IMG/VR virus record: IMGVR_UViG_3300038464_000026
Reading direction: 5' to 3' (one strand)
Source: an uncultured virus (IMG/VR IMGVR_UViG_3300038464_000026)
Taxonomy: Duplodnaviria; Heunggongvirae; Uroviricota; Caudoviricetes; Crassvirales
DNA length: 20,000 nucleotides
Within the stretch, counting starts at the first letter, position 1, and each line of letters begins with the position of its first letter. Of this stretch, positions 1 through 20,000 are shown in pieces. The position numbers and the translations under genes are program-made. Under the pieces are notes generated by a model. The model had not been told where the DNA came from. It worked only from the letters and a program-made list of their open reading frames with translations, and did no database searches.

Positions 1-180
1 TCCATATTCGTGAAAAGCACTATCTCTTCTAATATCAGTAGGATTATATTTAACTACAAACTTACCATTTTTACCTTCAACTTCTGCATGACCTGATATA
101 TTTCTATCTTCAATAAATGGTACATTAACTCCATGCTTAGCCCATATACTATTCAAATACTTCATCTTCTTTGAGAACCT
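1..180 (-). other. Second zincin-like metallopeptidase domain (truncated by the window edge)
   Basis: KMKYLNSIWAKHGVNVPFIED..ISGHAEVE..NGKFVVKYNP....DSAFHEYG at nt 1-12. The lead-in parallels zincin 1. The second His of HExxH would fall just outside the window. Confidence 0.65.
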
Positions 181-3100
181 ATCAGCAGAATCCTCTGGTA
201 AAATATTAGCTCTTTGTTCAAATCTAAATTGTTCACCAGAAGGTTTAACATTAATATCAGGTACGTCTAATAGTTTCAATTCAGACTTAAAAATTTCATT
301 CTGAAATACTTCAAAATCACTATATGATTTAAGAGCATCTTCCACATATTCTTTTTCATTATTATATGGGAATTTCTGATTAGGATGCTCTTTATTCCAT
401 CTATCTTCATTTTTATCATAAGCTGTAATAATAACTTGAGCAATATCACTATTATAATAATCTCCTAATTCATCATCATTATCTTTATCAAAATGAGTAA
501 TAAAATCTTTTAAATCATCAACTTTAATATCCCTATTAGCTAATTTAATAGTAGGAGATTCTTTAGGTTCTGTAAAATCTAATGAAGTTTGTTCAATTTT
601 AGACTTAGGCTCTTTAAGTCCTCTTACTTCATTAATATAATCTCTTAAAGCATCAGCATGAGAATAGTACTTTTCAGTCTTATAATATAATAATGTTTTA
701 CCATCTAATTTACCACTATTAATTTGTTCTAATATCCATTTTCTTTGTTCAGGTTTAACATTAGTCCATTCTTTACCATTTTTATCAGTAAATGTAGCAT
801 CAGGATTCTTTAACCATTCTTTATATGCAGTAACAGCATCATTTATATTCTTCATTTGTATAGTACCTGTTCCTTTATCTGTCCCAGTAAATGGATTACC
901 ATAATGTTCATCTGTATTATATTTTCTTAATACATTAACTTCATTAGAATTAGATTCTTTAACATCAGAGAGTCTACTAAAATCCCTAACTTTACTAGGA
1001 ATATATCTAACTTCATATTCTTTAGGAAGCACTACATTACTAGGAATATTATCTTTTAGTTCACTAAATATATTCTTAATTTCATCTACTTTATATCCTG
1101 CTAAATTTGAACCTAATTTGGTTACTAAGAACTTCTTATCTGGAGTATTCTTAGCAAAAGTAAGCATTTTATTAATACCTTCTTTTATCTCATCTAAAGA
1201 AGATGATTTAGAAACTTTCCAATCTTTCTTAGTTATAATAGCATAAGATTGACCTTGTAATCCTTCTGCTTGACCCTGTATAGCCCCAAACTTATCCTTA
1301 GCTATTAATGCAGCACCTTTACCATGATTACCTTCTGCATTACTTCCAAATACAAATATTTCATTAGGTTTCAATGAGGTTATATTATCAGGAGTAGATT
1401 CTTTAGGAATATTACTCACTTTTTTATAAGCATCAATTAGAGATTTAATAAAAGAATTTGATTTTCCTTCTCCTGATTCCCAAAAATTATCTCCTTTAAC
1501 TATATGTGTACACTTTTCTAAATATTCTATTCCTCCTCTTTCAGTTATTCCTTTTACTAGTTCAGGATAAGTTTTTAATTTAATCTCTATTAAATCACTC
1601 ATTAATTTATTAGTAGTCTTATTTTTAAGATATTCAGTTTTATTAGCTTGATAAGCAGCTTCTACGTCCTTATATTTTTTTCCATTATATTCAATAGGAT
1701 AATCTTCACTTAAATGACCTTTAGATTTAGCTAATACTGTGGGATTAGTTAAAGATGCAGCAAATCCTTTACTATTAGAACTAATATTATCACCTTTAAT
1801 TTTTTCATTAAGCAATTTAATATTATCCTTATTTTCCTCCAAAGGGGGATTCTCTATATTCTCTTCAGTTCTATTAAGTTTACCACTAGCTATACTTCTT
1901 AGCATCTTTTTTTCTAAATATTTATCTAAGAACCTTTCATCTCTACTATAATCTTCTATAGTAAAATAAGATTCATTAATTTGGTCTTTAAATTGTTGTT
2001 CTGTTGCACCAACTTTATTACTATCAAACATAGTAGGTTCATTAGTAATTTCTTGAACATTCCATTTACCTTTAGTTTCAACAGGATAAAATATCATATA
2101 TTTAATATCCCTATTAGTATGATACCTTTTAAATATAGTATATGATTTAGTTTTATCATTACGTACTTTAATATACATACTATTCTTAATAGAATTATCT
2201 ATGTGTTTAGTAAATTTATCAATATTATAAAATATCATAGGAGTATTAGGATTACTATCCCATCTTGGAGTACCCCAATCAAGTTCATTATTATGAAACA
2301 TAGCTCTAGCTTCTGGTATATTATTTATATTACCTCTTATAAATATATCAGTTAATTCCTTAGGCAATGATATAGTTCCATTGTGTATATCTTTATTTGC
2401 GTTATTAAGCACATCCCCAACTTCTGCATTAATTAAAGCTTCAATAGGTACTAATTTAGCAAAACTATTATTTCCATAAGCAAACCCAAATGTATCTTTA
2501 GCATATTTAACAGCACTATCAAATAATTCATTTTCAAATTCTTCATCTATAGACATATTAACACTACCTCTATGATTCATAGCTTGGAAACTATTAATCA
2601 AATCATTATCTAAATCAATCTCATTATGAGTATTCTTAAAATCTACATAATGAAATTCATTTTTATCAATATCATAAGGAGATAACTTAGTATCTAAATA
2701 ATTAAGTACATGCTTAGATAAAGGGTTTAAATCAAGCCTTATTTTTTGAGCTTCTATTTTCTCACCAAAACTTAAATCTTTAAATGTATCAAATGATATA
2801 TTTTTAGAAGGTTTATTAATTTCAATCTTACCAACTCCTAAATTCTTAATCGTTTCTTCTCGATTAGGTTTAAACCAATCATGTTCTTCTAGTAGATGAT
2901 TAATAAGCATATTAATAAATTTTCTATATAATCTATCTTTAGCACTTTGATTAAATATATTTAAATCATTATATATCTTATTAATAAGGAAATGAACTTG
3001 ATTACTTTCAATAGTAAAATGTTTAGCAAGTATATCTATAGCAGCTTGATTAACATATTTTACATAATGCTCTAAATTAGGATATACAGATTCTTTATTA

Positions 3101-6100
3101 AATCCAAATAAATTAGGAAATACAGCATATTCAAAAGGTTTACCATTTATGATTATATTACCATTAGTTTTAAGTATATTATCTATATAATCTCTATTAA
3201 ATGATACATTATCTCCAGCACCAGCTTTATAACTATTTAATTTCTGAGAAGCACTAAGAAGGTCTTTACCAACCTTAGTTAATTCCTCATATCTATTAAT
3301 TAAATTTAATTGTTGAGCATAATATATAACTTTTTGTTCAGGAGATAATTCATCTATTTTAGTACCATTTTTAAGAATAGTATTCATTTCAGGGACAGTA
3401 TAATATTCAGGACTATCTTTATCGTAATATTTACCTATAAGTTTTATATTAGATTTGTTAAATATATTATAAGTATAGTTTTTATTAGCTATATTCTCAT
3501 CAATTTTTACTACATCATAGTCTTTAAATAAAGTTGGGTCAAATGAGGTTGGGTCTATTTCTTTCTGAGTTTGATATAGTAATTTAGCATATTTGTTTCT
3601 TATATAAGCCACTGCAAACTTCTTATCTACTTCTGAACTAGTTAATAATGAATTATCAGTATGCACTTTAGTTATATCTCTAATACTATTTTGAGCTATA
3701 AGATTCCAAGCATAATCATAATCACCATTTAAAAGAACAGAGCTATGAACGATACTATCAGTAAATTTATTATAATTAACAGGTATATCTTCAAGTTTGG
3801 AAATATCTGTCATAGCATCTAAAAGTTGACCAAGTTCAGCAGTACTTACTTTTTTATGATTAATATAAACTATATCAGGATTTTTATCATCTTTTGTAAT
3901 AATACCCCTTTTTTCTAAATCCTCTAATTTAAGTCCTCTTCTATCTTCTAAATCTTTTAAACTATATTTTTGAGTTACACCCTCAGATAATTCTCCTCCA
4001 ATAAAACTTAGAGCATCTATAGTAGGTATTTCACCAGCAATATGTGATATAAGTTCTTTTCCACTACTATGTTTATCTGTAAATCTGTGTTGCTCATTAA
4101 GTGTACTATATGATTCAATTCCAGTAGGGTCTACTATATCTCTGACTTTACTTGCTGCATCCATAGATTCTTTATATAATACAGGCTTAACTTGAGCATA
4201 TAATGTAGAAGGATGAGAATATATAGTTTTCCATATACTTACTAATTCATTCTCATCTGCTTCTTGAGAACCTGGTTTAGCATCAGTATTATGAATATGA
4301 ATATATAATTTATCACTATCATTATCACTACCCATAGCAGTCATAGCATGAGGAGGAATTATACATATACCTCCAGATGATTTAGGTAATATTTCAACTA
4401 CTTTAAATACACCTCCACTATGTAAATCTGAAAATGGAGTTCTATACCCAAACATAGATTGTTGTTCTTCTGTAAGTTCATTAGCAAGTTTCAATACAGG
4501 TTCACCATTTACGAATATTAATTTTCCATTTTCATCAGATTTATAACATTCATCTCCCCAAGCACTAATAGCTATTTCATGTACTATTCCTTTTTTCTCA
4601 TCATAGTAACTTTTAACAGATTTACCTCCTCTTCCAGCATTACTAACTATAGTAAACTGTCCACCATTTATTTTATAATTAGTAATTCTATTATCAAATA
4701 GAGCCATTAAATCTTGAGCTACTTTATTAGTAATAGAAGGCCAATTAAGTCCCATAGGAAGTTCACCATTCTCATTAGTTTTAAAAAGTAATTGAATATT
4801 TATATTAGTACCAAATTTAGAACTAGAAGAATTTAGTATCTTAGCTAATTCATTAGGGTCATTTAATTCACCTTTTAATTTATCAGATTCTCCCTTTATT
4901 ATATTATATTGAGCATTATTGAACCTAGTAAATAATTCAGTACCACTAATATTATTTCCATTATGATTATATGTTTCGGTAAGTATAAGATGATTAATAA
5001 TCATAGCCTTAATTTGCTTACTGACTCTTATCTTAGCTTTCCATGAATGGTCAGGTATTTCAACCTGACTACCAGTAGCAGAAGTAGGAATATCTGTAAT
5101 TTCACCAGTAAACTTACTATTTATAACTGAACCTACACCATGTGCACCAACTTTAACAGCAGAATTATAAGATACTTTATCTATTCTAGCATCTTCTATT
5201 GCCTTTCTAATTTCAGCTAATAGACTACCTTCATTTGCATAATAATCATCTAGTCTATAAATAGCACTCTTGAGTTGAGTACTAAATATTTGATTTAAAT
5301 CTGGATTATATATTCTATCATAAGTATAACTTTTTTGTACTCCTAATTGAGGAGCATCATATTCATCCATGTGTATAAACTTATATACTCCATCTTTACT
5401 TTTTTCTATATAACCATTAAGATTAACACCTTTTTCAAGTAGATATTTAATATAGAAATCATTAGATACTAATTCTTGACCATCAGATTCAGTAGTACCA
5501 TCTCTGTATGTTTGAAGTGCTTCATTTATCTTTCTATCACTAATTCCTTGTTTTCTTAATGCTTTCTCTAAATCATCTATTATATTAGATTTACCCATTA
5601 TGTCATGGAGTGTTATATTCTTATAACCATCTCCCATGTGTAATCCAGAGAAGTTACTTCTAGGAGCTAATAATTCCTTAGCTCTTTTAGCTTTATCTTC
5701 AGAAGTAGCATATTCAGCATCTGTTCCAAGAAATAAGTTACCTGTTTCAACATTATTAATATAACTATTTACTCCAAATTCAGTTATAACTTGTTTCCAT
5801 ACACCTCCTGCTATAGGATTTTTACTATCAGTCCATATACCCTCACTCATCTTTTCAAATGGAGCATACTTAGGAAGTTCAGTATTAATTATATTGTCTA
5901 TAAACTTATCTACAATATCTGTTATTTCTTTGACTGTTTTATTTTGTGATTCATTCTTCCTATCTCTTTTACTATCATCAATTAAGAAATCTATCCCATC
6001 AACTATCATACCTTGAGAGAATAAATCTTTACTAAGATTATTTAATTCAGGTATATTATGAAACTTAAATACTCTACCTATAGCATTATCATCTTTGTCA

Positions 6101-9100
6101 ATATATGTAGGATTCTTAGTTTTTTTATCTTCAATATAATGATAATTCTTTACAAGACCTGTTAAATCATCTTTTAATTTATACTTACCATCTTCTTGTT
6201 GTTCAAACATTTGATGTTTAGCTTGTAACATTCTAGCAAGTTCTTGTCTAACTGTATTCATAATTCCATTATATAATGGAGAGTTCTGTTTAAGCTTACC
6301 ATTAAGATAATCTCTCTCAGATGTATAAATTATAGGAGCAGCAAGTCCATATCTTTGACCACTATCACCTTGCGTAACTAATGGAGTTCTACTTATATGA
6401 CTATTATCAATAGGTATAAGATATGAATATAAATCATATAGATAACGGTCAGAGTTAGTCATTTCGCTATTATCTTTACTATCTATACCAAACTTCATAC
6501 CTTCAACAGGATATATTCTAAGTTTAGTAAAATCTTTTATAGTTTTTTCTATATCCTTAGAGAACCAATTACAAAAAGATATTCCAGGAATATGCTTATA
6601 TAATATCAATTTAGCTCTAACAGCTTTCTGTATTTCAGGATTACTATTATTAAATTTATCAAATTCATTAGTTAATGAGGATGGAGGACTAATAGGATAT
6701 TTTAACTTACCTTTAAAATCTAGATAACTGGCTTGATAACTAACCATTCTAAATGGATATACTGCCTCAGCTAATTTGTTAACTCTATCTCCTATAGTTC
6801 TATCCTTCCCAACTTTACCTTCTTTATCAAGTTTACTACCTAAATATCCAGCTATAAATCTTAATGGCACAACAAATATTTTATAAAAAGCTTCTACAGG
6901 AGCTTCTTGAGTATTCATAAAATTAGATATTTCATCAGGGGTTATTCTAATACCAAATTCCTTATATTGTTTACTAACAATATTAATTACTTTATCTAAT
7001 TTATCAGAGGTAATATCTTCATTATATTTAGTAGTACCTGCTGTATCTTTAGTAGTAAGACCACCTTCTAAATTATGAAGTAATCCTTCTCCAATATTAC
7101 TCTTTTTAATAGGGTCATATTTTCCTTTAGTTGTTAATCCACTTTCTAAATCTTTTCTTACTTTCTCTTCTAAAGTATTCATTTTTTGACCTAATTGCTC
7201 ATACCAACTATCTACTAATTGATGTGATATATCTTTATAAGAATGTTGTACTTTAGCTATTATTTTATAAGAACCATCATTACTAAATATTTTTGTAAAA
7301 TGTATTCCTAATTCATCTCTTAAAGATTGACTAAATGAGGTAAAAAATGCAGCAACTAAATCCTTATTATCCCCGTTGAGACGCTTAATTATTTCTTTTA
7401 CAGTAGGATTACTTGAAGACAATTTATTTAATTTATAAAACATATCTTGTACAGTACTAGACCTTAATATTCCATTAGCACCATCAGATAATGTATTAAA
7501 TATATCACTATAATTAGTAAATTTAGGTAATCCTGTAATATCATTTATTTTGTATTCTCCTTTCATATTGGTTAAAGGAAGATTTCTTAGAAAATTCTTA
7601 ACTCTAATATTTACACTATTATTTATATTAATAATATGGTTATCTTCTTGAAATCCCTTACCTTCTGTTTCTCTTTTATTAGTCTCTTTTTCATCATCAT
7701 CTATATTAATCTTATAGTCTCTATTTAAAGCTATCTGAGCTTTAGTCCATATACTATTTTTAGTAGTAGATTCATCTTTAATATCATGTGCAGTTATAGC
7801 ATCAACAACTTTAGCATGAAATGCTTGTTGAGCATCTGTACGAGGATATATATTACCTACATTAACATTATTTGGTTGACTCCAATTTCTAAATTGATTA
7901 GTAACTCTATCTTTAAGACTATACTTACTTCGTTTATCTTTATCTTTTTTAGTATCTCCTTGTGTAAGTTGGTCTATAGTATGATTTATTAATTCAATAG
8001 CAGCCTTTTCTTCAATTCCATTAAATCCTGTAGCAAATTTATCTTCTTGTTTAACTTGACTATACCCTACAAAAGGTTTAACACTATCATATTCATTTCT
8101 ATCAAGTTCTATATTAGGGTCTAACATAAACTTAGCTAAATCACTTATAGTAGTTTTAGGCCCAAAGTAATCTAATCCAACTCTATTAGGAACTATACTT
8201 TTAATAGTTTCTTTAATTTCATTCCAGAAAGCTAATATAGCCTCTTTAAGAGATTGTTTAACATTTCTATCTTGTAATATATCAACTGCTTTTCTACCAC
8301 TTACTTCAACTATAGCTTCTTCATAACCAGCATCAGTTAGTGATTTACCATCAGTGCTGTAATCTTTATCAGATAATATATTAGATAATAATCCTGAATT
8401 ATTAATTAAAGTATCATTAATCTCATTTATTAAATTAAGATAAGCAGGAGTATTCTTAGTCTTTAAAGCACGTACAAGTGGATGTAAATATTCATGGAAA
8501 GGAGTATCATAACTAGCATATCTAGTATTAATATCAACTTCTTTACCAAATCTACCTTTGAATTTATCTGCAACATCAAGTAAATTAAATTTATAACCCA
8601 TCTTCTCTCCAAGCATATTTAATATACCTTTTATTGCTTCAGGAGCATCTTTATAAGCAGGTAATATAGGATTACCTTTATAATCTACTGTAACACCTTC
8701 TTTAAGTCCTTTATGTTCTATAGAATTATTAACTTTACTAAATAATATAGATTCTTTATCTATATTTTTAAGTGATATTTTGTTCCAACTATTACCATAT
8801 TCATCAGTAAATTCAGTAAGCCTATCACCATATAATTTGGTTAATATATTTTTAATAGTTTTACCATAATAAGCTTCTATTGGAGCAAGTTTCTCAATAC
8901 CTTGAGTTTTAAGGTCAGATTTTTGTTTTTCTAAATTTTCAATTCTATAATCTATCTTTTTTTGAGCAGATTCTATATCATTATATTCACTAAGAATTTC
9001 TCCATTTTTAGTAATAACTCTATAAGTAGCTTGTAAACTAGTAGGAAAATCATCATCTATACCTTTATCTATTTTTTCTATTTTAGCAGATTTCCATTTA

Positions 9101-12100
9101 TCTAAAATTATATCTAAAGCAATTATTTCATCAGCTATAATTTGATGTCTTTGTATTCTTGCAGCAGTTTCACCCATTGGGAACATTATATTTTCATATC
9201 CTTTATTAGCTGCCTTCTGCATTATAGATTTAATAAAAAATGTAACCCAATTATTATCTTTATTAAGTAATTGAAGAAATCTATTAGCATTATTAGGCTT
9301 TCCTTGTTCCCAATTATCTAATCTAGTTTGATATTCTTCCTCACTCTCATCAATATACGGATGGTCATGTATATCTACCTCATGCTGATAGTCAAGTATA
9401 TCTACCTCATATGACCAATGAGAATCATTTTTTCCTTTAGGTCTTTTAATATATACTAAACTATCCCTACCTCTACTTTTCTGAAATAAATCAGATTGTA
9501 CTTCTTGTACTCTAAGGTCTTTAGTTTCAGTTTTATAGTAATCTCTTGCTATTTCAACTGCATGATTATAAACATCACTTGAAACTTCTTTTTCAATAAA
9601 ATCAGAACCTTTTTCCCTTATATAATATTTACCATTTTTACTATAATACTCATGAGTACCAGTTTCTATTTTATTGCCATCATCTTTTATGAAACCATTA
9701 CTTTTTTCATCAGCTCTAAACCATCCAATACTATTCTTATTAGCAAAATTAGCATGAGATTTAATACTAGGTTCTACTCCAGGCACTCTAATATCCCATT
9801 CTTGATAATTAGTACCACCTTTAGCAGATAAATATTGATAAACTTTAGATGATGTAACAATATTATCTGGAAGAGAGTTATATATATTCTCATAATCTTC
9901 TTTATTAATCTCTTGACCATTTTTATAATATTTAACTCTATATAATTCATCAATCTCTTCATCAGTACGTCCTCTAGTAATATATGCTAAGGCAGCTTCA
10001 TCAATATTATTTGTAGCTTCATCAAATGTTAAATCTTGTATATAATATCTATCTCCATCTATATTAAAATTAGAAATTGATTGAGGAATAGTTTTATCAT
10101 CAGATAAACCTCTTTTGATTACTATATCTTTCTTAAAATCTTTATCTAATAATTCAGCAACTTCTTTACCAGTTAAATTATTATATCCTTTAACTACTTC
10201 CCTAACTAAATCTATTTGTTCTTTTTTTACTCCACTATTTTTAAGTGCATTAAAGAATGCTTCACCTTTATTCTTAGATATATCATATTTAGGGAAACCT
10301 TCTTTATACATGGCATTAACTGCCTTAAACATATATTTAACATTATCATTACCTAATTCAAACTTTTGATATTTATATTTATTATTAAGTTCTTTTAGTT
10401 TATTCTCAGCATCATTAGAGTTATCAAAAGATAATTGATTATTATTATCAAATCCTTCTTCATATTTAATAGCAAGAGATTCATCAAGTAAAGTAGGAGT
10501 AACCTTTTGAAATAAAATATTATCATCACCAATACCTTTATATTCAGTACCTTTTATTCTATCTACTCTTTCAGCATAAACTTTATCTGATTCACCAGAA
10601 CGTCTAGTAGATGTATTATAAGGTATCTCTTCTTTATATTCTCCAGTTTCTATTAATTTATCATAAGCAGCTAAAGTATGATGACCTATAACAGTAGTAT
10701 AAGTTTCATTATTATTTTTTATAAGTTTACCACTTTCGTCTACTTCAAGTTGTATAGGAGGTCTTTCACCATTTCTAATTTGAGCTATTTTTTTTTGTAC
10801 AGATTCATTATCAACTACACCTTTGAGTTTATCTTCATCATTAATATCAGAATGAGCAAAAGATTTCCATTGATATTTATCAGGTTCTGTAATAATATTA
10901 GCTCTGGGCATAGTTTCCACTCTAGTAGGAGTAACTATAGGTTCAACTTCTTTAAATTCATCTAATTCAGATTCTAATACAGCTATAGCAGCATTTAAAT
11001 TATTTATTATATATTCATTTTTATCTTTTACTATAGGTTTAGATTTAGAAGTTCTAGGAGCATTAGTAATAGTTCTTTCAGAGGTTAAATCCATATGAGT
11101 ATCATAATCTCCAGCAGGTATTATTTCATTAGGGGCAACTTCTCTATACCCCTCAGGTATTTTCTTTTTAAGTAAATTAATTAAAGTATCATTTAATAAA
11201 TCTAGGTTACTAGTAACTTCTTCTTTACTATTATAATCTTTGTTTACTAATTTATCTAAATAATTAGTAAGAAGACCATACCTATCAGCTTCAATAGATT
11301 TATCTATTACATTAGATAACTCAGTATTAACTATAGATTTATTATTTGCAATCTTATCTTCACTAGTAGGTAAATCTTGAGATTTAGAAGATTCCCCCTT
11401 TGGAGGAAATAATGATAGAGATTTCTCTTTTTCTATATTATCACCTTCTTTTTCTATATCACTTGATGAAGTTATTGTAGCAGGTTGAGTTCCTCTTATA
11501 ACATTATTACCTAAATATTCATTATCATTACTAACAAGTTTACCATTATAACATTGTATTCTACCTGATTTTATTAATTCATTACCTTCTTTGTTTAATT
11601 CAGTTTCATCTGTATCCTTACCATTTTCATCTTTTACTTTAGTAGTTTCTTTTGAAACAGGCATGTACTTACCTTCTTTATCAGAATACTCATATCTATT
11701 CTTATTTATATTTCTTTGTTTATTTTCTAATAAAGGTTTTAATATTTTTTCTAATTCATCATTAGTAGTTGCTTTAGCAAATGGCTTATCATCAACTATA
11801 ATACTATATTCTTTATTTTTACTATCTAATATAACCTTTACGTATTCACTTTTTGTAATATCAATATAATGTTCAAACTCAAGAACATCTATATCTCCAG
11901 CATGAATACCAGTATTAGGTTTAGCATTACTATTAATTGTAAAGTTAATCTTTTTTCTATCTGTTGTATTATCAGGAAAACTATACCATATTAACTGTTC
12001 TATTGCATTTACTTCTTTTCTTATATCCTTTTTACCCTCTTTAATCTTAGTTAGTGCCTTATCTATATTATCCCATATAATCTTATATTCAGCTTCATTA

Positions 12101-15100
12101 ATAGGAGGCATTTTATGATTTATAGTAACCCATTGATGCTTAGCATTAAAATCACTCTCAAATACAATCTTTTTTGAAGATTTACCAGTTTTACTATCTT
12201 CTACATTTTTTATTACCCATCTACCATTACTTTCATATTTTGGAAATATATCTTTTATAGGATGAGGTTTGTCAGTAGTAATTAAATTACCCATAGCAGT
12301 AACTGTAGTCCTAGTTTTCTTAGTTAATTTACTAATAGGGTCAGTATCATTACCATTATTAATTTGCTCTATAAAATCTTGTATTACAGCTTGTGTACCT
12401 TTGAAGTCATTATCTAAAGTATTTAACCAACCATCTAAAGAAGGTGTTATATCTTCTTTAGTTAATTGGTCAACTGTCTTTCCATTAGTCCCAAGACTAA
12501 ATGTAAGTAGTTTATATAAATGCTCTAGCATATTATTATAGCTATAAACATCTACTTTTAGTCTATCAGCAGTATTACTTAGTAAATCTTTATCTTCAAA
12601 TTTATCATTAAATATTTTATTTAATATTTTTAATATAGTAGCCTTAGTTTTACTATCTTCTATATCCTTAGTACCTTCTAAAGCTCTATTATTATTAGTA
12701 TAAGTTTTAGTTAAAGATTTAATATCTTCTATTATTTCTTTTATAGGGAGGTTGGCAATATATTTATTAATTAACCCATCCGTTAACGCATATTCACCAA
12801 TATCAGTACCACCTTTATCTGTATCATTGAATTTATAATAACTATATCTAGCTAAATAAGGAGGATGATTCTTATTATCTATTTGAATAGATAATCTATC
12901 TATAAATAAATTCCTTGCTTTATTATCTTTAAGTAATTCTTTTAAATCACCGATATTCTTAACAGCTTTAAATAATTTAGCAGTCTCTTCATCTGCTACA
13001 TTTTTTATTCTATCTGTTAAATAATCCCAATTTAAACTAAAGTTAGTATTTTTATTATGGAGTTCATTAAGAGCTTTATATATAGATGAAGCATTTTTAC
13101 TTAATTTTTGACTACCACTATTATTAGTATTATATTGTGAACCTGTATTATGTCCTTCAACATTTAGGCTAGATTGTATATCACGTGCTTTATCAGATTT
13201 ATTAAGAACTATGGGAGCAACTAAATTAGCTTGCTTATTATCCTGCTTTTCAGTAGCAATTCTTTCTGCCTCTGTCGCTTCACCTGTTTGCTCTGGTTGA
13301 ATGATAATTTCTGAATCAGGGGTTTGTACAGTTGATACAGTTTGGACATCAGTGGACTTTAATAAATTATTTTTAATATTAGTTCTTATTTCATCTATTC
13401 TATTTTCAATAAGTTTACTAAATTCTTTATCATCTAACTTGTCATATTTATCCTTAACTTCTAATAGAGTAGGTAAATCATTAATACTATTAATCATTCT
13501 TTTAAAATCATCTCTTTTAGCAGTCCTTTCTTGTCTCTCCAAAATCTTGATGGATTTATAAAAATCCTTCATAAAATCTATACGACCTTTATTTGAAGTA
13601 ATCTTATTAAAAGCTGTATTATAACTATCTACTAAAGATTCATTAAATAACTGTTTATTTAAAAGATATTGTTTTTCTCTTCTATTATCTAATGAATAAT
13701 GAGTTTCAGCAGCTTTAAGAATAGAATTAACTTCTTTGTCTACCTTTTCATCATATTCTTTATTTAATCTTTCATTAATTTCTTTTAATTCCTTAATTCT
13801 AGATTTAGATACATCATCATCTTTACCAGATAAAGACTTTATTTCTTTATCATTATCATCTACTTTAGTTAAGTATTGTTCTGTATATTTTTCTCCAACT
13901 CTAGATATGATACCATTCATAGCATTAGTATAATCAACTTGGGCTTTTGATTCAGCTTTAGCTATCTTATCTTTATCAGCTAGTATTCTACCATCATATA
14001 TATAACCTGTAAACTCTTCATCATAATTCTTAACTAAAATTTGAGCAGCAATTAATTTATCCTGTAAGTCAATTAAAGATTTATAACTCTCTGTATCTAT
14101 TGTACTAGTAGTATCATTAATTTTATTATCAAGTTTATTTATATTATCCTTAATTTCAGTTAATCTCTTTTCAGCACTAAATCTATTTAATTTGATATTA
14201 TATAATACATCAAGGACATTAGTCATTCTCTCTTCATAAGTCCAATTATAATCATTAACTAATTTATCCCATATATCTCTTTTATCTTTAATGTCCTTTA
14301 TTTTATCTGATAAAATCTGTTGTAGTTCTTTATCTTCTTTATGTTGTTTTGTGTATGCTTCAAGCCCATCAGATAAGTACTTATCTAAACCATTTCTTAT
14401 AGAGAATTGCATTTGTGCATTTTGCATATCCTCTTTAGCACGTTCTACTTCTTCATGTGCCTTCTTATCTTTCTCACTACCACTATTATCAATATCAACT
14501 ATATTCTTTATATATCTATTATAAGCATCTTTTAATGTTATAACGTCTTGTTTAGCTCCTTCAATAGCTATAGTATTAATCCTATTTCTTTCTAATTTTA
14601 ATAGTTTTTCTTTAGATACAATTCTCCTCTTAGTATCAAATATAGTATTACCTAAATAATCTGTAACAACTTTACCTTTATTGTCTACTTTAGCTTTTGG
14701 AGTATATCCTATAGTTTCACCTTTATCGTTCTTTACTTCATCAAATATAGATTCCTTATATAAAAATGGCACATGACCAAATAGACTCATAACAACTCCC
14801 ATACCAAATCCACTAAGTACATTATCTTTTTCTTCCTGATATAATTTTAATATATCAAATGTATTATCTTTAGTAGTATAATCTCCATATTTTCTAGTAC
14901 CATATATATGTTCTCCTGCTATCTCAGAACCTATAGATACAGGGTGCATAGCTCCAAACATCCAAGCATCTTGTCCAGCTCTACCTAATATCTTACTTGT
15001 TTTCTTTAACCAACCTTCACCATTGTTCTCTAATAATTCTCTATTTAACTTACTATATGTTTCTTCTAATTCTTGTAATCCTTTAACTTCACCTTTACCT

Positions 15101-16245
15101 TCTAATGATTTTATTAAATCTTCTGGTAAGCCAAAAGCTTTAGTTTTTTGTAATAAAGCACCTATAGGTACAGCAAATAATAACCCATTACCTAATGTCT
15201 CTATTCTCATATTTAAATTAGCAGCTTTAGTAGCATCTTGCTCTGCTAAGAATATAGCTCTTTTATTATCATATCCTCTGTTAGTATAATATTTTATTTT
15301 AGATTCTCTGACTTTATCAAATGTCTCATCAGCAGAATATCCACTCATCCCATAAGACATAGCAAAAGGAACACCTAAACTACTATTACCTAAACTTTCC
15401 GCTAAACTTGCAGCTTCTGGAAATTCAATACCATACAATAAACGTGCAGCTAAAGCACCAGATGTTTTAAGTGCAGCAGCTATAACTATACCTTGTGCTG
15501 CCATACCAGCTACACCTTTAAATATACCTGCTGGTTTAGCTATCCATTGATTAGGAACAGGAAGGTCTTGTTCTATATTACTTTTAATACCACCTATTTT
15601 ACTATCATGCCCAGATAAATAAGTAGCCATTAAATCTACATCATTGATAAACCTATTCTTAGTATCTGGAAAAAATGCTTTTACTATATTATTACCTTCT
15701 CTAGCATTTTTATCAAAATCCATTTGTGTTTTATGAATAGCTTCATCTTGCTTTTTAAAATCTTTTATATCCTTTTCAGAGTATCCCATCTTACGCCTAT
15801 CATCATCACTTAATACAGCATCTTTAGTTAGAGGATTTTCTCTAGCTTCTTTATCTGTAAAAGTTCTAGGTCTAGCTATATCTTCAACAATAGGATATAT
15901 AAGTCTATTAACAAGTTTATATAAATCTCCAGTAACATAAGCAATACTCTGTTTACCTTCATTTTCTAATTGTTTCCAAAATCCAGGTTCATTACCTACA
16001 TTATTAGACTTTATATCATCAAAAGTTTTATTTGCAGGAGGAACTATTGTAGGAGATTGATTAACATAGTTACCTTTATCATCTAAAACAACACTAGTTT
16101 CAGAACCACCTTTACTGAAACTAGGATTATTAGGGTTAGAAGGTATTACCACCTCACCACTAGAATTAATATATTTATTTGTTGTACCTTTTTTTGGAAT
16201 ACTGTCATTCCCTTCGGCAGTATTACTAATCAAATCATTAGTCAT
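1..16245 (-). CDS. Giant virion polyprotein containing a crAss-like virion RNA polymerase (>5,415 aa; 3' end beyond the window)
   Basis: ATG at 16245-16243 (MTNDLISNTAEGNDS...), 22 nt after the TAA of the upstream gene. Manually translated stretches across the window are stop-free in this frame down to ...RRDSAFHEYG at nt 1. Its absence from the ORF track fits an ORF with no stop inside the window. It carries RNAP, zincin, NADAR and other motifs in one frame. Confidence 0.95.
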   Translation of the reverse strand, partial: MTNDLISNTAEGNDSIPKKGTTNKYINSSGEVVIPSNPNNPSFSKGGSETSVVLDDKGNYVNQSPTIVPPANKTFDDIKSNNVGNEPGFWKQLENEGKQSIAYVTGDLYKLVNRLIYPIVEDIARPRTFTDKEARENPLTKDAVLSDDDRRKMGYSEKDIKDFKKQDEAIHKTQMDFDKNAREGNNIVKAFFPDTKNRFINDVDLMATYLSGHDSKIGGIKSNIEQDLPVPNQWIAKPAGIFKGVAGMAAQGIVIAAALKTSGALAARLLYGIEFPEAASLAESLGNSSLGVPFAMSYGMSGYSADETFDKVRESKIKYYTNRGYDNKRAIFLAEQDATKAANLNMRIETLGNGLLFAVPIGALLQKTKAFGLPEDLIKSLEGKGEVKGLQELEETYSKLNRELLENNGEGWLKKTSKILGRAGQDAWMFGAMHPVSIGSEIAGEHIYGTRKYGDYTTKDNTFDILKLYQEEKDNVLSGFGMGVVMSLFGHVPFLYKESIFDEVKNDKGETIGYTPKAKVDNKGKVVTDYLGNTIFDTKRRIVSKEKLLKLERNRINTIAIEGAKQDVITLKDAYNRYIKNIVDIDNSGSEKDKKAHEEVERAKEDMQNAQMQFSIRNGLDKYLSDGLEAYTKQHKEDKELQQILSDKIKDIKDKRDIWDKLVNDYNWTYEERMTNVLDVLYNIKLNRFSAEKRLTEIKDNINKLDNKINDTTSTIDTESYKSLIDLQDKLIAAQILVKNYDEEFTGYIYDGRILADKDKIAKAESKAQVDYTNAMNGIISRVGEKYTEQYLTKVDDNDKEIKSLSGKDDDVSKSRIKELKEINERLNKEYDEKVDKEVNSILKAAETHYSLDNRREKQYLLNKQLFNESLVDSYNTAFNKITSNKGRIDFMKDFYKSIKILERQERTAKRDDFKRMINSINDLPTLLEVKDKYDKLDDKEFSKLIENRIDEIRTNIKNNLLKSTDVQTVSTVQTPDSEIIIQPEQTGEATEAERIATEKQDNKQANLVAPIVLNKSDKARDIQSSLNVEGHNTGSQYNTNNSGSQKLSKNASSIYKALNELHNKNTNFSLNWDYLTDRIKNVADEETAKLFKAVKNIGDLKELLKDNKARNLFIDRLSIQIDNKNHPPYLARYSYYKFNDTDKGGTDIGEYALTDGLINKYIANLPIKEIIEDIKSLTKTYTNNNRALEGTKDIEDSKTKATILKILNKIFNDKFEDKDLLSNTADRLKVDVYSYNNMLEHLYKLLTFSLGTNGKTVDQLTKEDITPSLDGWLNTLDNDFKGTQAVIQDFIEQINNGNDTDPISKLTKKTRTTVTAMGNLITTDKPHPIKDIFPKYESNGRWVIKNVEDSKTGKSSKKIVFESDFNAKHQWVTINHKMPPINEAEYKIIWDNIDKALTKIKEGKKDIRKEVNAIEQLIWYSFPDNTTDRKKINFTINSNAKPNTGIHAGDIDVLEFEHYIDITKSEYVKVILDSKNKEYSIIVDDKPFAKATTNDELEKILKPLLENKQRNINKNRYEYSDKEGKYMPVSKETTKVKDENGKDTDETELNKEGNELIKSGRIQCYNGKLVSNDNEYLGNNVIRGTQPATITSSSDIEKEGDNIEKEKSLSLFPPKGESSKSQDLPTSEDKIANNKSIVNTELSNVIDKSIEADRYGLLTNYLDKLVNKDYNSKEEVTSNLDLLNDTLINLLKKKIPEGYREVAPNEIIPAGDYDTHMDLTSERTITNAPRTSKSKPIVKDKNEYIINNLNAAIAVLESELDEFKEVEPIVTPTRVETMPRANIITEPDKYQWKSFAHSDINDEDKLKGVVDNESVQKKIAQIRNGERPPIQLEVDESGKLIKNNNETYTTVIGHHTLAAYDKLIETGEYKEEIPYNTSTRRSGESDKVYAERVDRIKGTEYKGIGDDNILFQKVTPTLLDESLAIKYEEGFDNNNQLSFDNSNDAENKLKELNNKYKYQKFELGNDNVKYMFKAVNAMYKEGFPKYDISKNKGEAFFNALKNSGVKKEQIDLVREVVKGYNNLTGKEVAELLDKDFKKDIVIKRGLSDDKTIPQSISNFNIDGDRYYIQDLTFDEATNNIDEAALAYITRGRTDEEIDELYRVKYYKNGQEINKEDYENIYNSLPDNIVTSSKVYQYLSAKGGTNYQEWDIRVPGVEPSIKSHANFANKNSIGWFRADEKSNGFIKDDGNKIETGTHEYYSKNGKYYIREKGSDFIEKEVSSDVYNHAVEIARDYYKTETKDLRVQEVQSDLFQKSRGRDSLVYIKRPKGKNDSHWSYEVDILDYQHEVDIHDHPYIDESEEEYQTRLDNWEQGKPNNANRFLQLLNKDNNWVTFFIKSIMQKAANKGYENIMFPMGETAARIQRHQIIADEIIALDIILDKWKSAKIEKIDKGIDDDFPTSLQATYRVITKNGEILSEYNDIESAQKKIDYRIENLEKQKSDLKTQGIEKLAPIEAYYGKTIKNILTKLYGDRLTEFTDEYGNSWNKISLKNIDKESILFSKVNNSIEHKGLKEGVTVDYKGNPILPAYKDAPEAIKGILNMLGEKMGYKFNLLDVADKFKGRFGKEVDINTRYASYDTPFHEYLHPLVRALKTKNTPAYLNLINEINDTLINNSGLLSNILSDKDYSTDGKSLTDAGYEEAIVEVSGRKAVDILQDRNVKQSLKEAILAFWNEIKETIKSIVPNRVGLDYFGPKTTISDLAKFMLDPNIELDRNEYDSVKPFVGYSQVKQEDKFATGFNGIEEKAAIELINHTIDQLTQGDTKKDKDKRSKYSLKDRVTNQFRNWSQPNNVNVGNIYPRTDAQQAFHAKVVDAITAHDIKDESTTKNSIWTKAQIALNRDYKINIDDDEKETNKRETEGKGFQEDNHIININNSVNIRVKNFLRNLPLTNMKGEYKINDITGLPKFTNYSDIFNTLSDGANGILRSSTVQDMFYKLNKLSSSNPTVKEIIKRLNGDNKDLVAAFFTSFSQSLRDELGIHFTKIFSNDGSYKIIAKVQHSYKDISHQLVDSWYEQLGQKMNTLEEKVRKDLESGLTTKGKYDPIKKSNIGEGLLHNLEGGLTTKDTAGTTKYNEDITSDKLDKVINIVSKQYKEFGIRITPDEISNFMNTQEAPVEAFYKIFVVPLRFIAGYLGSKLDKEGKVGKDRTIGDRVNKLAEAVYPFRMVSYQASYLDFKGKLKYPISPPSSLTNEFDKFNNSNPEIQKAVRAKLILYKHIPGISFCNWFSKDIEKTIKDFTKLRIYPVEGMKFGIDSKDNSEMTNSDRYLYDLYSYLIPIDNSHISRTPLVTQGDSGQRYGLAAPIIYTSERDYLNGKLKQNSPLYNGIMNTVRQELARMLQAKHQMFEQQEDGKYKLKDDLTGLVKNYHYIEDKKTKNPTYIDKDDNAIGRVFKFHNIPELNNLSKDLFSQGMIVDGIDFLIDDSKRDRKNESQNKTVKEITDIVDKFIDNIINTELPKYAPFEKMSEGIWTDSKNPIAGGVWKQVITEFGVNSYINNVETGNLFLGTDAEYATSEDKAKRAKELLAPRSNFSGLHMGDGYKNITLHDIMGKSNIIDDLEKALRKQGISDRKINEALQTYRDGTTESDGQELVSNDFYIKYLLEKGVNLNGYIEKSKDGVYKFIHMDEYDAPQLGVQKSYTYDRIYNPDLNQIFSTQLKSAIYRLDDYYANEGSLLAEIRKAIEDARIDKVSYNSAVKVGAHGVGSVINSKFTGEITDIPTSATGSQVEIPDHSWKAKIRVSKQIKAMIINHLILTETYNHNGNNISGTELFTRFNNAQYNIIKGESDKLKGELNDPNELAKILNSSSSKFGTNINIQLLFKTNENGELPMGLNWPSITNKVAQDLMALFDNRITNYKINGGQFTIVSNAGRGGKSVKSYYDEKKGIVHEIAISAWGDECYKSDENGKLIFVNGEPVLKLANELTEEQQSMFGYRTPFSDLHSGGVFKVVEILPKSSGGICIIPPHAMTAMGSDNDSDKLYIHIHNTDAKPGSQEADENELVSIWKTIYSHPSTLYAQVKPVLYKESMDAASKVRDIVDPTGIESYSTLNEQHRFTDKHSSGKELISHIAGEIPTIDALSFIGGELSEGVTQKYSLKDLEDRRGLKLEDLEKRGIITKDDKNPDIVYINHKKVSTAELGQLLDAMTDISKLEDIPVNYNKFTDSIVHSSVLLNGDYDYAWNLIAQNSIRDITKVHTDNSLLTSSEVDKKFAVAYIRNKYAKLLYQTQKEIDPTSFDPTLFKDYDVVKIDENIANKNYTYNIFNKSNIKLIGKYYDKDSPEYYTVPEMNTILKNGTKIDELSPEQKVIYYAQQLNLINRYEELTKVGKDLLSASQKLNSYKAGAGDNVSFNRDYIDNILKTNGNIIINGKPFEYAVFPNLFGFNKESVYPNLEHYVKYVNQAAIDILAKHFTIESNQVHFLINKIYNDLNIFNQSAKDRLYRKFINMLINHLLEEHDWFKPNREETIKNLGVGKIEINKPSKNISFDTFKDLSFGEKIEAQKIRLDLNPLSKHVLNYLDTKLSPYDIDKNEFHYVDFKNTHNEIDLDNDLINSFQAMNHRGSVNMSIDEEFENELFDSAVKYAKDTFGFAYGNNSFAKLVPIEALINAEVGDVLNNANKDIHNGTISLPKELTDIFIRGNINNIPEARAMFHNNELDWGTPRWDSNPNTPMIFYNIDKFTKHIDNSIKNSMYIKVRNDKTKSYTIFKRYHTNRDIKYMIFYPVETKGKWNVQEITNEPTMFDSNKVGATEQQFKDQINESYFTIEDYSRDERFLDKYLEKKMLRSIASGKLNRTEENIENPPLEENKDNIKLLNEKIKGDNISSNSKGFAASLTNPTVLAKSKGHLSEDYPIEYNGKKYKDVEAAYQANKTEYLKNKTTNKLMSDLIEIKLKTYPELVKGITERGGIEYLEKCTHIVKGDNFWESGEGKSNSFIKSLIDAYKKVSNIPKESTPDNITSLKPNEIFVFGSNAEGNHGKGAALIAKDKFGAIQGQAEGLQGQSYAIITKKDWKVSKSSSLDEIKEGINKMLTFAKNTPDKKFLVTKLGSNLAGYKVDEIKNIFSELKDNIPSNVVLPKEYEVRYIPSKVRDFSRLSDVKESNSNEVNVLRKYNTDEHYGNPFTGTDKGTGTIQMKNINDAVTAYKEWLKNPDATFTDKNGKEWTNVKPEQRKWILEQINSGKLDGKTLLYYKTEKYYSHADALRDYINEVRGLKEPKSKIEQTSLDFTEPKESPTIKLANRDIKVDDLKDFITHFDKDNDDELGDYYNSDIAQVIITAYDKNEDRWNKEHPNQKFPYNNEKEYVEDALKSYSDFEVFQNEIFKSELKLLDVPDINVKPSGEQFRFEQRANILPEDSADRFSKKMKYLNSIWAKHGVNVPFIEDRNISGHAEVEGKNGKFVVKYNPTDIRRDSAFHEYG
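625..945 (-). other. DUF4326-like domain within the polyprotein
   Basis: LRK....HYGNPF...DAVTAYKEWL...GKLDGKTLLYY......SHADALRDYIN matches the DUF4326 pattern R...GNPF...Y..WL...L.GK.L.....H.D.L. Confidence 0.72.
1012..1395 (-). other. Macrodomain-like module (A1S_2505-type phage family) within the polyprotein
   Basis: TPDNITSLKPNEIFVFGSNAEGNHGKGAALIAKDKFGAIQGQAEGLQGQSYAIITK...FAKNTPDKKFLVTKLGSNLAGY...NVVLPKEY. This closely matches the IFVFGSN-x-x-G-x-HG-x-GAA family, with the macro-like N...GxGAA and GxxxAG loops. Confidence 0.8.
1414..1797 (-). other. NADAR (YbiA-like) domain within the polyprotein
   Basis: ...LTNP...YPIEYNGKKYKDVEAAYQANK...LMSDLIEIKLKTYPELVKGITERGG...GDNFWESGEGKSNSFIKSLIDAY matches the NADAR pattern G-x-x-Y-x-x-x-E-x-x-Y-Q-A-x-K, M...K...P-x-L, D-x-x-W...G-x-x-N. 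Confidence 0.75.
1950..7980 (-). other. Two-barrel (double-psi beta-barrel) RNA polymerase region, beta-like and beta'-like parts fused, crAss virion RNAP type
   Basis: Ordered motifs: LFLGTDAEY..EDKAKRAKELLAP (~5660-5740); ESDGQ (~5476-5490); VQKSY...TQLKSA with the two beta-type lysines (5332-5334, 5269-5271); IDKVSYNSAVKVG; GYRTP...FKVVEILP...IIPP..TAMGSDNDSDKLY (~4300-4450); GKELI; AVKYAKDTFGF...FAKLVP; FYPVETKG. These follow the pattern I recall for phi14:2 gp66/crAssphage RNAP. Confidence 0.92.
4309..4332 (-). other. RNAP Mg2+-binding catalytic loop GSDNDSDK (DxDxD, about residues 3974-3978)
   Basis: Direct translation. It lies downstream of the R-x-P motif (GYRTP) at the spacing expected in the beta' double-psi beta-barrel. 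Confidence 0.92.
8110..8640 (-). other. Zincin-like metallopeptidase domain (HExxH...E)
   Basis: FKGRFGKEVDINTRYASYDTPFHEYLHPLV (HEYLH at 8482-8496), then GYEEAIVE (candidate third ligand) and ILAFWNEIKE. This is the typical layout of zincins in large phage virion proteins. Confidence 0.85.
8760..9840 (-). other. 'GGxNYxE...ExQSD' domain of large phage virion/polyvalent proteins, possibly GNAT-like fold
   Basis: YQYLSAKGGTNYQEWDIRVP...SHANF..NSIGWFR...LRVQEVQSDLFQK (9481-9504)...NWVTFFIKSIMQKAANKGYENIMFPMGETAA...YYGKTIKNIL...DEYGNSW. Recognised by motif only; the fold is inferred. Confidence 0.5.
9364..9410. repeat. Short in-frame duplication with 27-bp period (YEVDILD/HEVDIHD)
   Basis: gtcatgtatatctacctcat (9364-9383) versus gtcaagtatatctacctcat (9391-9410); 19 of 20 bases identical. 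Confidence 0.8.
10612..10920 (-). other. ParB/sulfiredoxin-like domain, degenerate (GHHT in place of GHHR)
   Basis: VETMPRANIITEPDKYQWK...VQKKIAQIRNGERPPIQLE...TYTTVIGHHTLAAYDKL...EIPY; GHHT at 10675-10686. Confidence 0.6.
14761..15545 (-). other. Gly/Ala-rich hydrophobic helices, putative membrane-inserting/ejection region
   Basis: AGIFKGVAGMAAQGIVIAAALKTSGALAARLLYGI; LGVPFAMSYGMSG; LGNGLLFAVPIGALL; VLSGFGMGVVMSLFGHVPFL. Confidence 0.6.
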
Positions 16246-18856: not shown

Positions 18857-20000
18857 TTATTTAAAATCTCCACTACTCCAATCAAGTTCAAATCTATCTC
18901 TTCTTGCATTAGGATATTTTTTACTATATTCATTCCAGAAACTCTCTTTATCTAATTTAGTACCAGTATTAGTAAGGTTGTTCCATAAATTTAACATATT
19001 AACTCTCTCTGGGTCATAAGCAGTTTCTTTATATACATTTAATTGCTTATTTTCTAAATTTATTTTATCTTGTCTATTTACTAAGTTTGAAGCTTGTTCT
19101 CCAACTTTATTATATAATTGAGATTCTTTACTTATAATATCCCTTATTCTAGCATCTTCATTCATATTATAAGTATCCATTTTACCTAAATTTCTATTAT
19201 TAACTTCAGTATTTAATTGAGATTGTGCCATTTCTCTTTCATTTTTAAAGTTTACTTGACTTTGATATAAAGCACCAAGTTTATCATCACTATCTAACAT
19301 ATTAGCTCTAGTTCTAGCAGAAGCAACATTACCACTACTAGTACCTTCTCTAATACTTCTATTCATAGTAGTTTGATTATCTTTTATATTCTTCTCAGAT
19401 TGGCTTATATCTAAATTCTTATTTAAAGTAGGTATCTGTTCCATATTAGGTAAAGGAAGTGCTTTACCTTTCAATTGATTAATTAAACCTTGATTAGCTA
19501 TATCTCCTATAAATGGAGTTAAATTAGCAAGTTTACTCCAAGTATTATCTGAATTAGATGAAGTATTATCTGAATTAGATGAAGTATTATTAGTATAACC
19601 ATTAGGATTACTAGGACTAGAAGGAATTGCTGGATTAGTGGGTTGGGCTTTAGTATTATTCATACTATAATTAGTAGCAGCAAATGTCTTATAATTATAC
19701 ATAGGGTCATTTATACTTTGATTATTCTCTGTTATTAAATCAGCATCAGTAGGAGTATGTTGAGCATCATAAGCTGTAATACTAACAGGACTATTATCAT
19801 CTTTATTATTAGGATTTAAAGGAACATACCCATCTTGTTGTTTTGCTACATTTGTTAAATCATCATCCCCCTTATAAAGTATTTTACCATAAGCAGCTTG
19901 TTTATCATTACTTTCAGGTTTCATTCTTTCTTGCATAGCTGGTAGCATAGACATTTTAGTATCTATTTTATCCATTTCTCTTTCAATAGTACCTCTTTTA
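18857..20000 (-). CDS. Probable virion cargo protein, likely 5'-truncated (at least 372 aa)
   Basis: The track ORF is 18857..19975, but the frame stays open upstream to the window edge (KRGTIERE-MDKID...), so Met 19975 may be internal. N/S/P-rich disordered middle, amphipathic WSKLANLTPFIGDIANQGLI, and an N/Q-rich helical C-terminus. Confidence 0.8.
   Translation of the reverse strand, partial: KRGTIEREMDKIDTKMSMLPAMQERMKPESNDKQAAYGKILYKGDDDLTNVAKQQDGYVPLNPNNKDDNSPVSITAYDAQHTPTDADLITENNQSINDPMYNYKTFAATNYSMNNTKAQPTNPAIPSSPSNPNGYTNNTSSNSDNTSSNSDNTWSKLANLTPFIGDIANQGLINQLKGKALPLPNMEQIPTLNKNLDISQSEKNIKDNQTTMNRSIREGTSSGNVASARTRANMLDSDDKLGALYQSQVNFKNEREMAQSQLNTEVNNRNLGKMDTYNMNEDARIRDIISKESQLYNKVGEQASNLVNRQDKINLENKQLNVYKETAYDPERVNMLNLWNNLTNTGTKLDKESFWNEYSKKYPNARRDRFELDWSSGDFK
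19540..19590. repeat. Perfect 21-bp in-frame tandem repeat, about 2.4 copies (encodes NTSSNSD)
   Basis: aagtattatctgaattagatg at 19540-19560 and 19561-19581, plus a partial aagtattat at 19582-19590. Confidence 0.95.

Follow-up and report, generated by a model that had tools for sequence, protein, structure and literature searches.

The closest described counterpart of the locus analyzed here is the RNA polymerase (RNAP) cargo block of Crassvirales phages, which comprises gp67, gp66, and gp65 in phi14:2, gp47, gp50, and gp49 in crAss001, and gp45 and gp44 in p-crAssphage. Passages of a preprint (bioRxiv 10.1101/2020.03.07.982082) show that gp66 of phi14:2 is packaged in the virion and transcribes early genes, and passages on crAss001 report the presence of its RNAP cargo in virions by mass spectrometry. 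A review gives the length of crAss RNAP proteins as "up to ~6000 aa" (PMC10136315). Our locus shares with these blocks a homologous DxDxD RNAP, a gp65-type C-terminus, zincins, and a position after two smaller cargo-like genes. It differs in the predicted length of its protein (about 7,000 aa), in a DNDSD catalytic motif, in the presence of at least six passenger domains, and in an optional in-frame cassette of 1,242 bp (574..1815, minus strand; 414 aa, residues 4811-5224) that is absent from twin alleles. All coordinates refer to the window, meaning the whole 20,000-nucleotide stretch of uncultured-virus DNA that was analyzed.

The polyvalent proteins (Iyer et al. 2017, PMC5512222) are a second point of reference. 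As characterized in passages of that study, these are large multidomain virion-type proteins with zincin MPTases, unrelated enzymatic passengers, and mosaicism between relatives. The protein encoded here likewise combines several biochemically unrelated domains and a zincin MPTase in one large chain. Its carrier, however, is a crAss two-barrel RNAP rather than one of the N4/T7-type treated in those passages. The term "NADAR" has 0 occurrences in PMC5512222, and the mosaicism here lies between alleles that are 99.97% identical.

Two stand-alone phage enzymes resemble parts of the cassette. AdfN (T4 gp30.3; PMC11825919) and AdfM (phiKZ gp104; PMC13309987) are, according to passages of these papers, demonstrated anti-DarT enzymes. 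With AdfN the locus shares a NADAR fold, an E-x6-K spacing, and a last-strand His, and with AdfM it shares a DarG-like macrodomain in which the catalytic Asn is aligned. Whereas AdfN and AdfM are separate genes expressed during infection, their predicted counterparts here appear to be fused in tandem within a virion polyprotein. The same trio of domain types has been described as fused in viral SLOG/Macro/NADAR/DUF4326 proteins (Iyer et al. 2022, PMC9503650); the main text of that paper has 0 occurrences of "crAss", and its relevant passages do not describe carriage on a virion RNAP. Within the literature covered, consisting mostly of the main texts of papers that need no subscription, we found no report that RNAP genes of crAss phages carry ADP-ribose-type passengers or occur as coexisting cassette alleles. 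Comparable architectures may already be depicted in Yutin 2021 Fig. 3 or in the tables of Iyer 2022. Fusion of the cargo genes is commonplace, and what the locus adds is the coexistence of cassette alleles, with a payload that seems to be swappable within a population.

A giant cargo ORF built around a crAss-type RNA polymerase

The original prediction of a hidden ORF of more than 16 kb was correct. On the minus strand, from 16245 to 1, the window contains an ORF that starts with ATG, continues for 5,415 stop-free codons under table 11, and is still open at the left edge. Its frame is free of stops over 5,426 codons, compared with a maximum of 862 in the other five, and from base composition the log10 of the chance of such an open frame is about -240. 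This ORF is listed only if open ends are allowed, which explains why the ORF track missed it. GC makes up 27.6% of the window, and throughout the ORF, the cassette region included, GC3 remains at 8-12%. An alternative genetic code was considered and is unneeded, given that table 11 already leaves the frame free of stops.

Leftward extension was possible through a near-twin. A protein search returned a protein of 6,590 aa (P0004), whose contig (L005) was recovered by a metagenome scan. It has 6 differences from the window protein in the first 4,810 residues, and over the 10,000 bases upstream of 1816 the two DNAs differ by 3 substitutions and no gap, corresponding to an allele that is 99.97% identical. 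The stop codon lies outside the window, and in the twin it is found 1,589 aa beyond the window edge. If the window allele ends like the twin, then 6,590 aa plus the 414-aa cassette would yield a protein of about 7,004 aa. Cysteines of P0004 are found at residues 1565, 3225, 3900, 3961, 6483, and 6534, and are thus not confined to the termini of the protein.

The integrity of the ORF was also examined by aligning four sequencing runs to the window as contigs. In run X7, a single 20,814-bp contig spans 1816-20000 with 4 differences and no gaps, and a downstream contig places a repeat at the same spacing as in L005. The collinear L005 and X7 contigs rule out a chimera or frameshift, such that the ORF is not chimeric over aa 1-4810. 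A 2-base insertion at 7845 in one RNA-run contig is without support in three DNA runs. Continuity is judged here from contigs rather than raw reads, and no single piece covers the whole window. Nevertheless, the idea that a chimeric ORF or a false indel has been created by assembly is largely refuted, and we consider it very improbable. The forms with and without the cassette are both found in separate assemblies and databases, an X12 contig spans the 1815/1816 junction and continues 100 letters past it, and 14 DNA runs (11 study codes, from peat or permafrost, and possibly including the source of the window itself) each contain 0.87-0.97 of the words sampled from 1-4000, a region that includes the cassette. 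Five further runs, of RNA, contain 0.22-0.31 of these words. No close relative of the window was found in the viral contig collection that was searched.

The central part of the ORF (1966..8148, minus strand) was identified by tblastn and profiles as a crAss-type two-barrel virion RNAP, as originally predicted. Residues from about 3,280 to 3,990 match 63 phage records by tblastn; the 40 that were listed, at 22-25% identity, represent either RNAP genes of the crAss type or crAss-like records that lack annotation. E values for this piece include 3e-21 for crAss002 gp33 and 1e-7 for phi14:2 gp66. A profile built from 150-odd relatives (the best 150 listed of 200 matches) covers residues 681-2086 of the 2,180 in gp66, and the homology thus extends across both barrel regions. 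The three catalytic aspartates of DxDxD are kept as DNDSD (aa 3974-3978; 4312-4326), in which the second and fourth residues are atypical. This variant is found once among 135 motifs counted, most of which are DFDID or DFDVD. The literature on gp66 describes I or V at the fourth position as general in crAss RNAPs, and the departure seen here may change the self-inhibited state of the active site. More general searches were less productive: phmmer of the RNAP piece against the PDB found no RNAP, Pfam gave nothing above cut-off for four large pieces of the ORF, phrog_2072 was the sole PHROGs match of the large pieces, and tblastn of aa 1-1500 and 1401-2800 against phages returned no match.

Within the RNAP coding region, 32 bp (6160-6191) recur with 31 of 32 letters identical between two downstream genes (about 17157-17188 in L005; also in X2 and X7). 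The recurrence may represent a small antisense element or the relic of a repeat.

The C-terminus of the twin, in the region beyond the window edge, matches phi14:2 gp65 (E 1.9e-43) and crAss001 gp49 (E 1.6e-55). Judged by homology, the ORF is a Crassvirales virion-RNAP cargo polyprotein with RNAP and gp65-like parts and, more weakly, a gp67-like part. Of the fusion of neighboring genes that had been proposed, the gp66 and gp65 portions hold (E 1e-43 for the latter), whereas the gp67 portion is weak and is reached transitively through P0008, the closest relative.

Our survey of RNAP gene architectures indicates that fusion is ordinary for this group. Among 152 relatives, some of which are fragments, 8 combine a gp67-type N-terminus, RNAP, and a gp65-type C-terminus, 39 combine gp67 and RNAP, 10 combine RNAP and gp65, and 95 have RNAP only. 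P0008 is counted among the 10 and is three-way by a weaker test, which would bring the three-way total to 9 of 152. These fusions are scattered over several clades of an RNAP-core tree (71 sequences, FastTree, 656 columns, midpoint root), and the gp66 preprint, in passages, already reports a three-way fusion in "some phages". The fusion is thus not new, and the architecture can be regarded as described in part.

The surroundings of the ORF also conform to the group. Gene order is as in phi14:2 g069-g065 and crAss002, and in L005 the ORF is followed by an oppositely oriented (convergent) block that bears a dUTPase gene, as in crAss002 and p-crAssphage. Upstream are two separate genes on the minus strand, one of 857 aa that is cargo-like by size and position (16268..18841) and one of more than 380 aa that is open at the right edge (18857..19999). 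Homologues of neither gene were detected in Pfam or PHROGs, nor of the 857-aa gene by tblastn against phages. Passages on crAss001 indicate that the channel-forming proteins C1 and C2 stay separate from the RNAP cargo. The two cargo-like genes of the window are similarly unfused, which argues against the original prediction of an all-in-one ejection protein. At 19677-19896, within the second of these genes, runs X2, X12, and X15 have 218 bases swapped for 173 others, which leaves the gene 45 bases shorter and in frame. This replacement adjoins a cluster of 7 substitutions, both forms are present in X2, and it constitutes a second variable cargo-like region.

The N-terminal region and the fixed passengers

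The N-terminal, putatively gp67-like region (14566..15948, minus strand) had been called membrane-type, a tentative label that reflects a pair of moderately hydrophobic 19-mers (aa 241-259 and 476-494; KD 1.72 and 1.51). It is 23% identical to P0008 over 1,554 columns. P0008 in turn matches the gp67 profile with an E value of 7e-7, compared with 0.012 for the best of 50 shuffled sequences. Direct comparison of the window protein with gp67 by profile and hhalign gave no match. This chain of similarity weakly suggests that the N-terminus is gp67-like. The predicted stalk that follows (13336..14568, minus strand; aa 560-970) is a putative helical stretch named from its composition, which is proline-free and rich in K, E, and D.

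The ORF has two zincin-like domains, as originally predicted, and these flank the RNAP. The first (8146..8814, minus strand) has HEYLH at aa 2584-2588 (8482-8496), and the second begins at 1..228 on the same strand, where its motif is cut by the window edge to HEYG and reads HEYGH in the twin. In the twin, a nuclease-like domain of the PD-(D/E)XK type, which matches a PHROG exonuclease at E 2e-8, comes after the second zincin and before the gp65-like C-terminus. The zincins may cut the polyprotein into units; release of such units by MPTases is a hypothesis found in passages of PMC5512222 and of the gp66 preprint. However, P0008 has HGVAH in place of HEYLH, and this degeneration of zincin 1 weakens the case for a general role in self-cleavage.

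Another conserved passenger (9046..9855, minus strand; aa 2,131-2,400) bears the signature H..GWFR.D..EVQSDLFQK, and we refer to it as the EVQSD domain. Its H, R, E, Q, S, and D residues are invariant, a pattern of conservation that is enzyme-like. It was found at 158 viral loci, of which 80 were kept (L023-L102); among these, 78 place it in ORFs of at least 1,000 aa, 73 have crAss cargo markers, and 42 have it in gp65-type ORFs. Searches for a family or structure gave an atlas best of 0.87 to an unnamed entry, nothing convincing in Pfam for any of 56 members, and no PDB match, and the domain is absent from the text of PMC5512222. A cold-shock identity was considered because of weak matches and was rejected. 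The 13 matches in genome contigs are to MAG contigs of unrelated taxa and are uninformative with regard to the host.

Residues 1,784-1,900 (10546..10896, minus strand), which include GHHTLAAY, form a possible passenger that may be ParB-like (DdrB-like). Pfam, NCBIfam, and PDB sequences gave no support for this assignment.

Predicted domains and function of the optional cassette

The cassette contains three predicted domains. Domain 1 (1411..1815, minus strand) appears to have a NADAR fold. Its AF2 model, made from 9 sequences, has a pLDDT of 86, and the top three structures in a VIA comparison are all NADARs (Z 9.1, 8.9, and 6.6), with the next unrelated structure at 3.9. The first of these is 8bau (rmsd 3.0, 118 residues aligned) and the second is YbiA, which is also the top Foldseek match (E 0.16); NADAR/Phage_30_3 entries lead the atlas search. 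Pfam gave no match to domain 1, and 0 of 11 alignment members match PF08719, so that the domain would at best represent a divergent NADAR subfamily. The putative active-site residues are E52, K59, H104, and W112. The E52-x6-K59 spacing equals that of E36 and K43 in AdfN, as given in passages of PMC11825919, and H104 is an invariant last-strand His of the kind described for phage NADARs; E52, K59, and H104 were assigned by spacing and motif rather than by superposition, and K59 is not invariant in relatives. In the giant ORFs that contain members of this NADAR-like subfamily (L006-L018), the neighboring domains, as judged by eye, are SLOG-like, macro, kinase-like, and zincin.

Domain 2 (991..1398, minus strand) is an A1S_2505-family macrodomain that resembles DarG, TARG1, and AdfM. 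It matches the NCBIfam A1S_2505 model above cut-off (E 9e-38) and the DarG model weakly. Its structural model, based on 78 sequences, retrieves the DarG macrodomain first in VIA (Z 11.9, rmsd 2.7, 127 aligned), followed by PARP9 at 11.0, although Z-scores for DarG, PARP9, and Poa1p all lie within about 1. N24 is invariant in 88 sequences and K61 is nearly so. In an hhalign comparison with phiKZ gp104 (AdfM; probability 90.9%), N24 falls on N23, the residue mutated in work described in passages of PMC13309987, and a TK motif falls on TKDNW. From its modeled fold, domain 2 is most likely a DarG/TARG1-class macrodomain and is a candidate thymine de-ADP-ribosylase. The identity of the NADAR-like domain and the macrodomain to characterized enzymes is 13-24%. 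Domain 3 (616..978, minus strand) is DUF4326-like, with a score against PF14216 of 20.4 bits (gathering score 25; E 8e-4); its model is of low to middling confidence, and its fold-match lists are filled by the macrodomain.

Given these features, we assign a probability of roughly 60% to the reading that the polyprotein is packed, injected, and transcribes early, and that its dispensable cassette removes or processes ADP-ribose from the start of infection. Three RNAP-associated cargo proteins would be made late as a single polyprotein of about 7,000 aa in a Crassvirales-type phage of peat and permafrost. By extension from phi14:2 gp66, this protein would be packed into the capsid and threaded unfolded into the host, where it would transcribe the early genes. 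The cassette trio would strip or process ADP-ribose from the first minute, most likely by removing from phage DNA the marks that DarT1 places on guanine and DarT2 on thymine, and it would also clear ADP-ribose products. The known anti-DarT enzymes are made after entry, whereas a virion-delivered version, if real, would act before transcription.

Two reports count against the anti-DarT part of this proposal. NADARs that are active in vitro were non-protective in vivo (PMC11125620), and passages of PMC9503650 favor soluble ADP-ribose derivatives as the substrates of phage Macro, NADAR, and SLOG proteins. Perhaps, then, the cassette counters soluble immune signals or metabolites derived from NAD or ADP-ribose (Thoeris/sirtuin-type) rather than ADP-ribosylation of DNA. 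The same passages propose that DUF4326 fused to Macro, NADAR, or SLOG domains trims ribose phosphates, and SLOG-like sequence is seen by eye beside the NADAR relatives in L013 and L016. However, domain 2 is most similar, both in structure and by profile, to two DNA de-ADP-ribosylases, DarG and AdfM, and its catalytic Asn aligns. We regard a purely soluble target as unlikely.

Cassette alleles and a probable modular slot

The cassette is cleanly missing from the twin (L005/P0004), with no microhomology at the junction, and it is also missing from P0157, a third database protein that has the downstream residues of the window. Both states occur together in run X2. There, a piece covering 544-1845 without any difference has a depth of 6.41, a joint that skips the 1,242 bp has a depth of 5, and the flanks are at 12.8-12.9, indicating two alleles of similar depth in one sample. 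The joint taken alone is borderline, with a short side of 30 letters called at 90% likeness; the short side of the other skip joint, also called at 90%, is 25 letters. In RNA run X15, depth is 0.02 at 668-1334, in the middle of the cassette, and the flanks are covered, but an uncovered part of a contig proves nothing.

Run X7 probably holds a third insert. Its long contig skips the cassette, continues with 25 letters to 549, and then departs into 142 non-window letters, and the next contig has 99 foreign letters before it joins the window at 565. The two 30-letter foreign ends are open in the ORF frame, with GC3 of 1/9 and 0/9. The probable insert would be flanked on both sides by a 17-bp repeat (549..565, minus strand) that encodes KESPT. 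A near copy of this stretch is situated between the first two cassette domains (1385-1407), which suggests that the cassette was built up stepwise.

Just downstream of the slot, substitution clusters at 54-69 and 202-293 differ among the runs and between L005 and P0157. They are apparently unlinked to the presence of the cassette, and recombination is suggested as a result.

Since three of the domains belong to an optional cassette, copies of this phage need not all have one and the same domain combination. The prediction of accessory domains in polyvalent style with a counter-defence-like payload is upheld, with the correction that three of these domains are optional. Comparison of sequences across relatives indicates that the linker from the RNAP C-terminus to zincin 2 serves as a modular slot. 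For P0008, motifs identified by eye indicate an SF1 helicase of the RecD/Dda type in the same slot (about 4370-4810). The cassette-type macrodomain is present in 8 of the 152 relatives, in 7 of them just after the RNAP, and the NADAR-like domain is present in 3. The macrodomain of P0015 is 72% identical to that of the window, compared with 25% for the RNAP core, which points to horizontal exchange. Among GenBank records, the RNAP genes of cr50_1, 'frurule', and cr112_1 contain this macrodomain. The RNAPs of cr112_1 and crAss001 (gp50) are 97.3% identical (L021 1886-9574 compared with L002 12040-19278), and that of cr112_1 has an N-terminal insert of about 150 aa with the same macrodomain. Walker-type motifs are also seen in P0096, P0125, P0133, and P0150.

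The preferred reading holds that the cassette is dispensable and would be useful on some hosts only. The coexistence of alleles that are empty, loaded, and probably loaded with something else is what would be expected if its benefit depends on host defence content. A more ambitious version, which we offer tentatively, is that the linker of crAss-like phages is a dedicated, hot-swappable payload bay in which, inside a single wild population, at least three in-frame alleles cycle by host-dependent selection, and that a paired DarT1 and DarT2 antidote is joined to the injected polymerase to erase marks on the template before expression.

Selection might also have little part in this variation. 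Neutral domain traffic could produce alleles that drift if a flexible linker tolerates in-frame inserts, for which short direct repeats offer a possible mechanism. Empty alleles are indeed common, and 8 of 16 relatives with RNAP and gp65-type parts, counted whether or not the slot is measurable, have short linkers of 8-95 aa. We give this idea little credence, since the catalytic residues of the cassette are intact, ADP-ribose-type domains have been gained repeatedly and independently across Crassvirales, and the extra cargo costs 47 kDa per copy. On the preferred reading, swappable cargo could help to explain why crAss RNAP genes vary so extremely in size. Natural alleles that differ by a 414-aa cassette, or by one macrodomain as for cr112_1 and the cultured crAss001, provide a ready-made test of passenger function and of polyprotein cutting. 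They also give a measure of the additional cargo that podophages are able to thread into their hosts, at about 0.8 MDa per chain.

The cassette lies near one copy of a second, dispersed 17-bp motif, TCCCCCTTTGGAGGAAA. Within the ORF, an antisense copy is located inside a linker (11393..11409, plus strand) and a sense copy (1833..1849, minus strand) stops 17 nt short of the cassette junction. A third exact copy is intergenic in L005 (16262-16278), upstream of an oppositely oriented gene of the early block; 0.02 such copies would be expected. This arrangement raises the idea that the cassette is a captured early-type gene that has its own upstream signal and is translated by itself, being in frame merely to spare the polyprotein. 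The first cassette codon is TTG, and stand-alone macrodomain homologues of about 135 aa that are 65-73% identical stand at the top of 2,839 matches to domain 2. However, the cassette is not followed by a stop, and 13 of 13 viral NADAR-like relatives lie inside long ORFs. The motif is present in the empty allele as well, and any role as a promoter is putative. We consider separate expression improbable and prefer delivery of the cassette as part of the polyprotein. A stable hairpin was also considered for the 17-bp motif and was rejected, because it folds no better than shuffled sequences. A loose contig end at 1828 in X2 may reflect yet another copy of the motif elsewhere in the genome.
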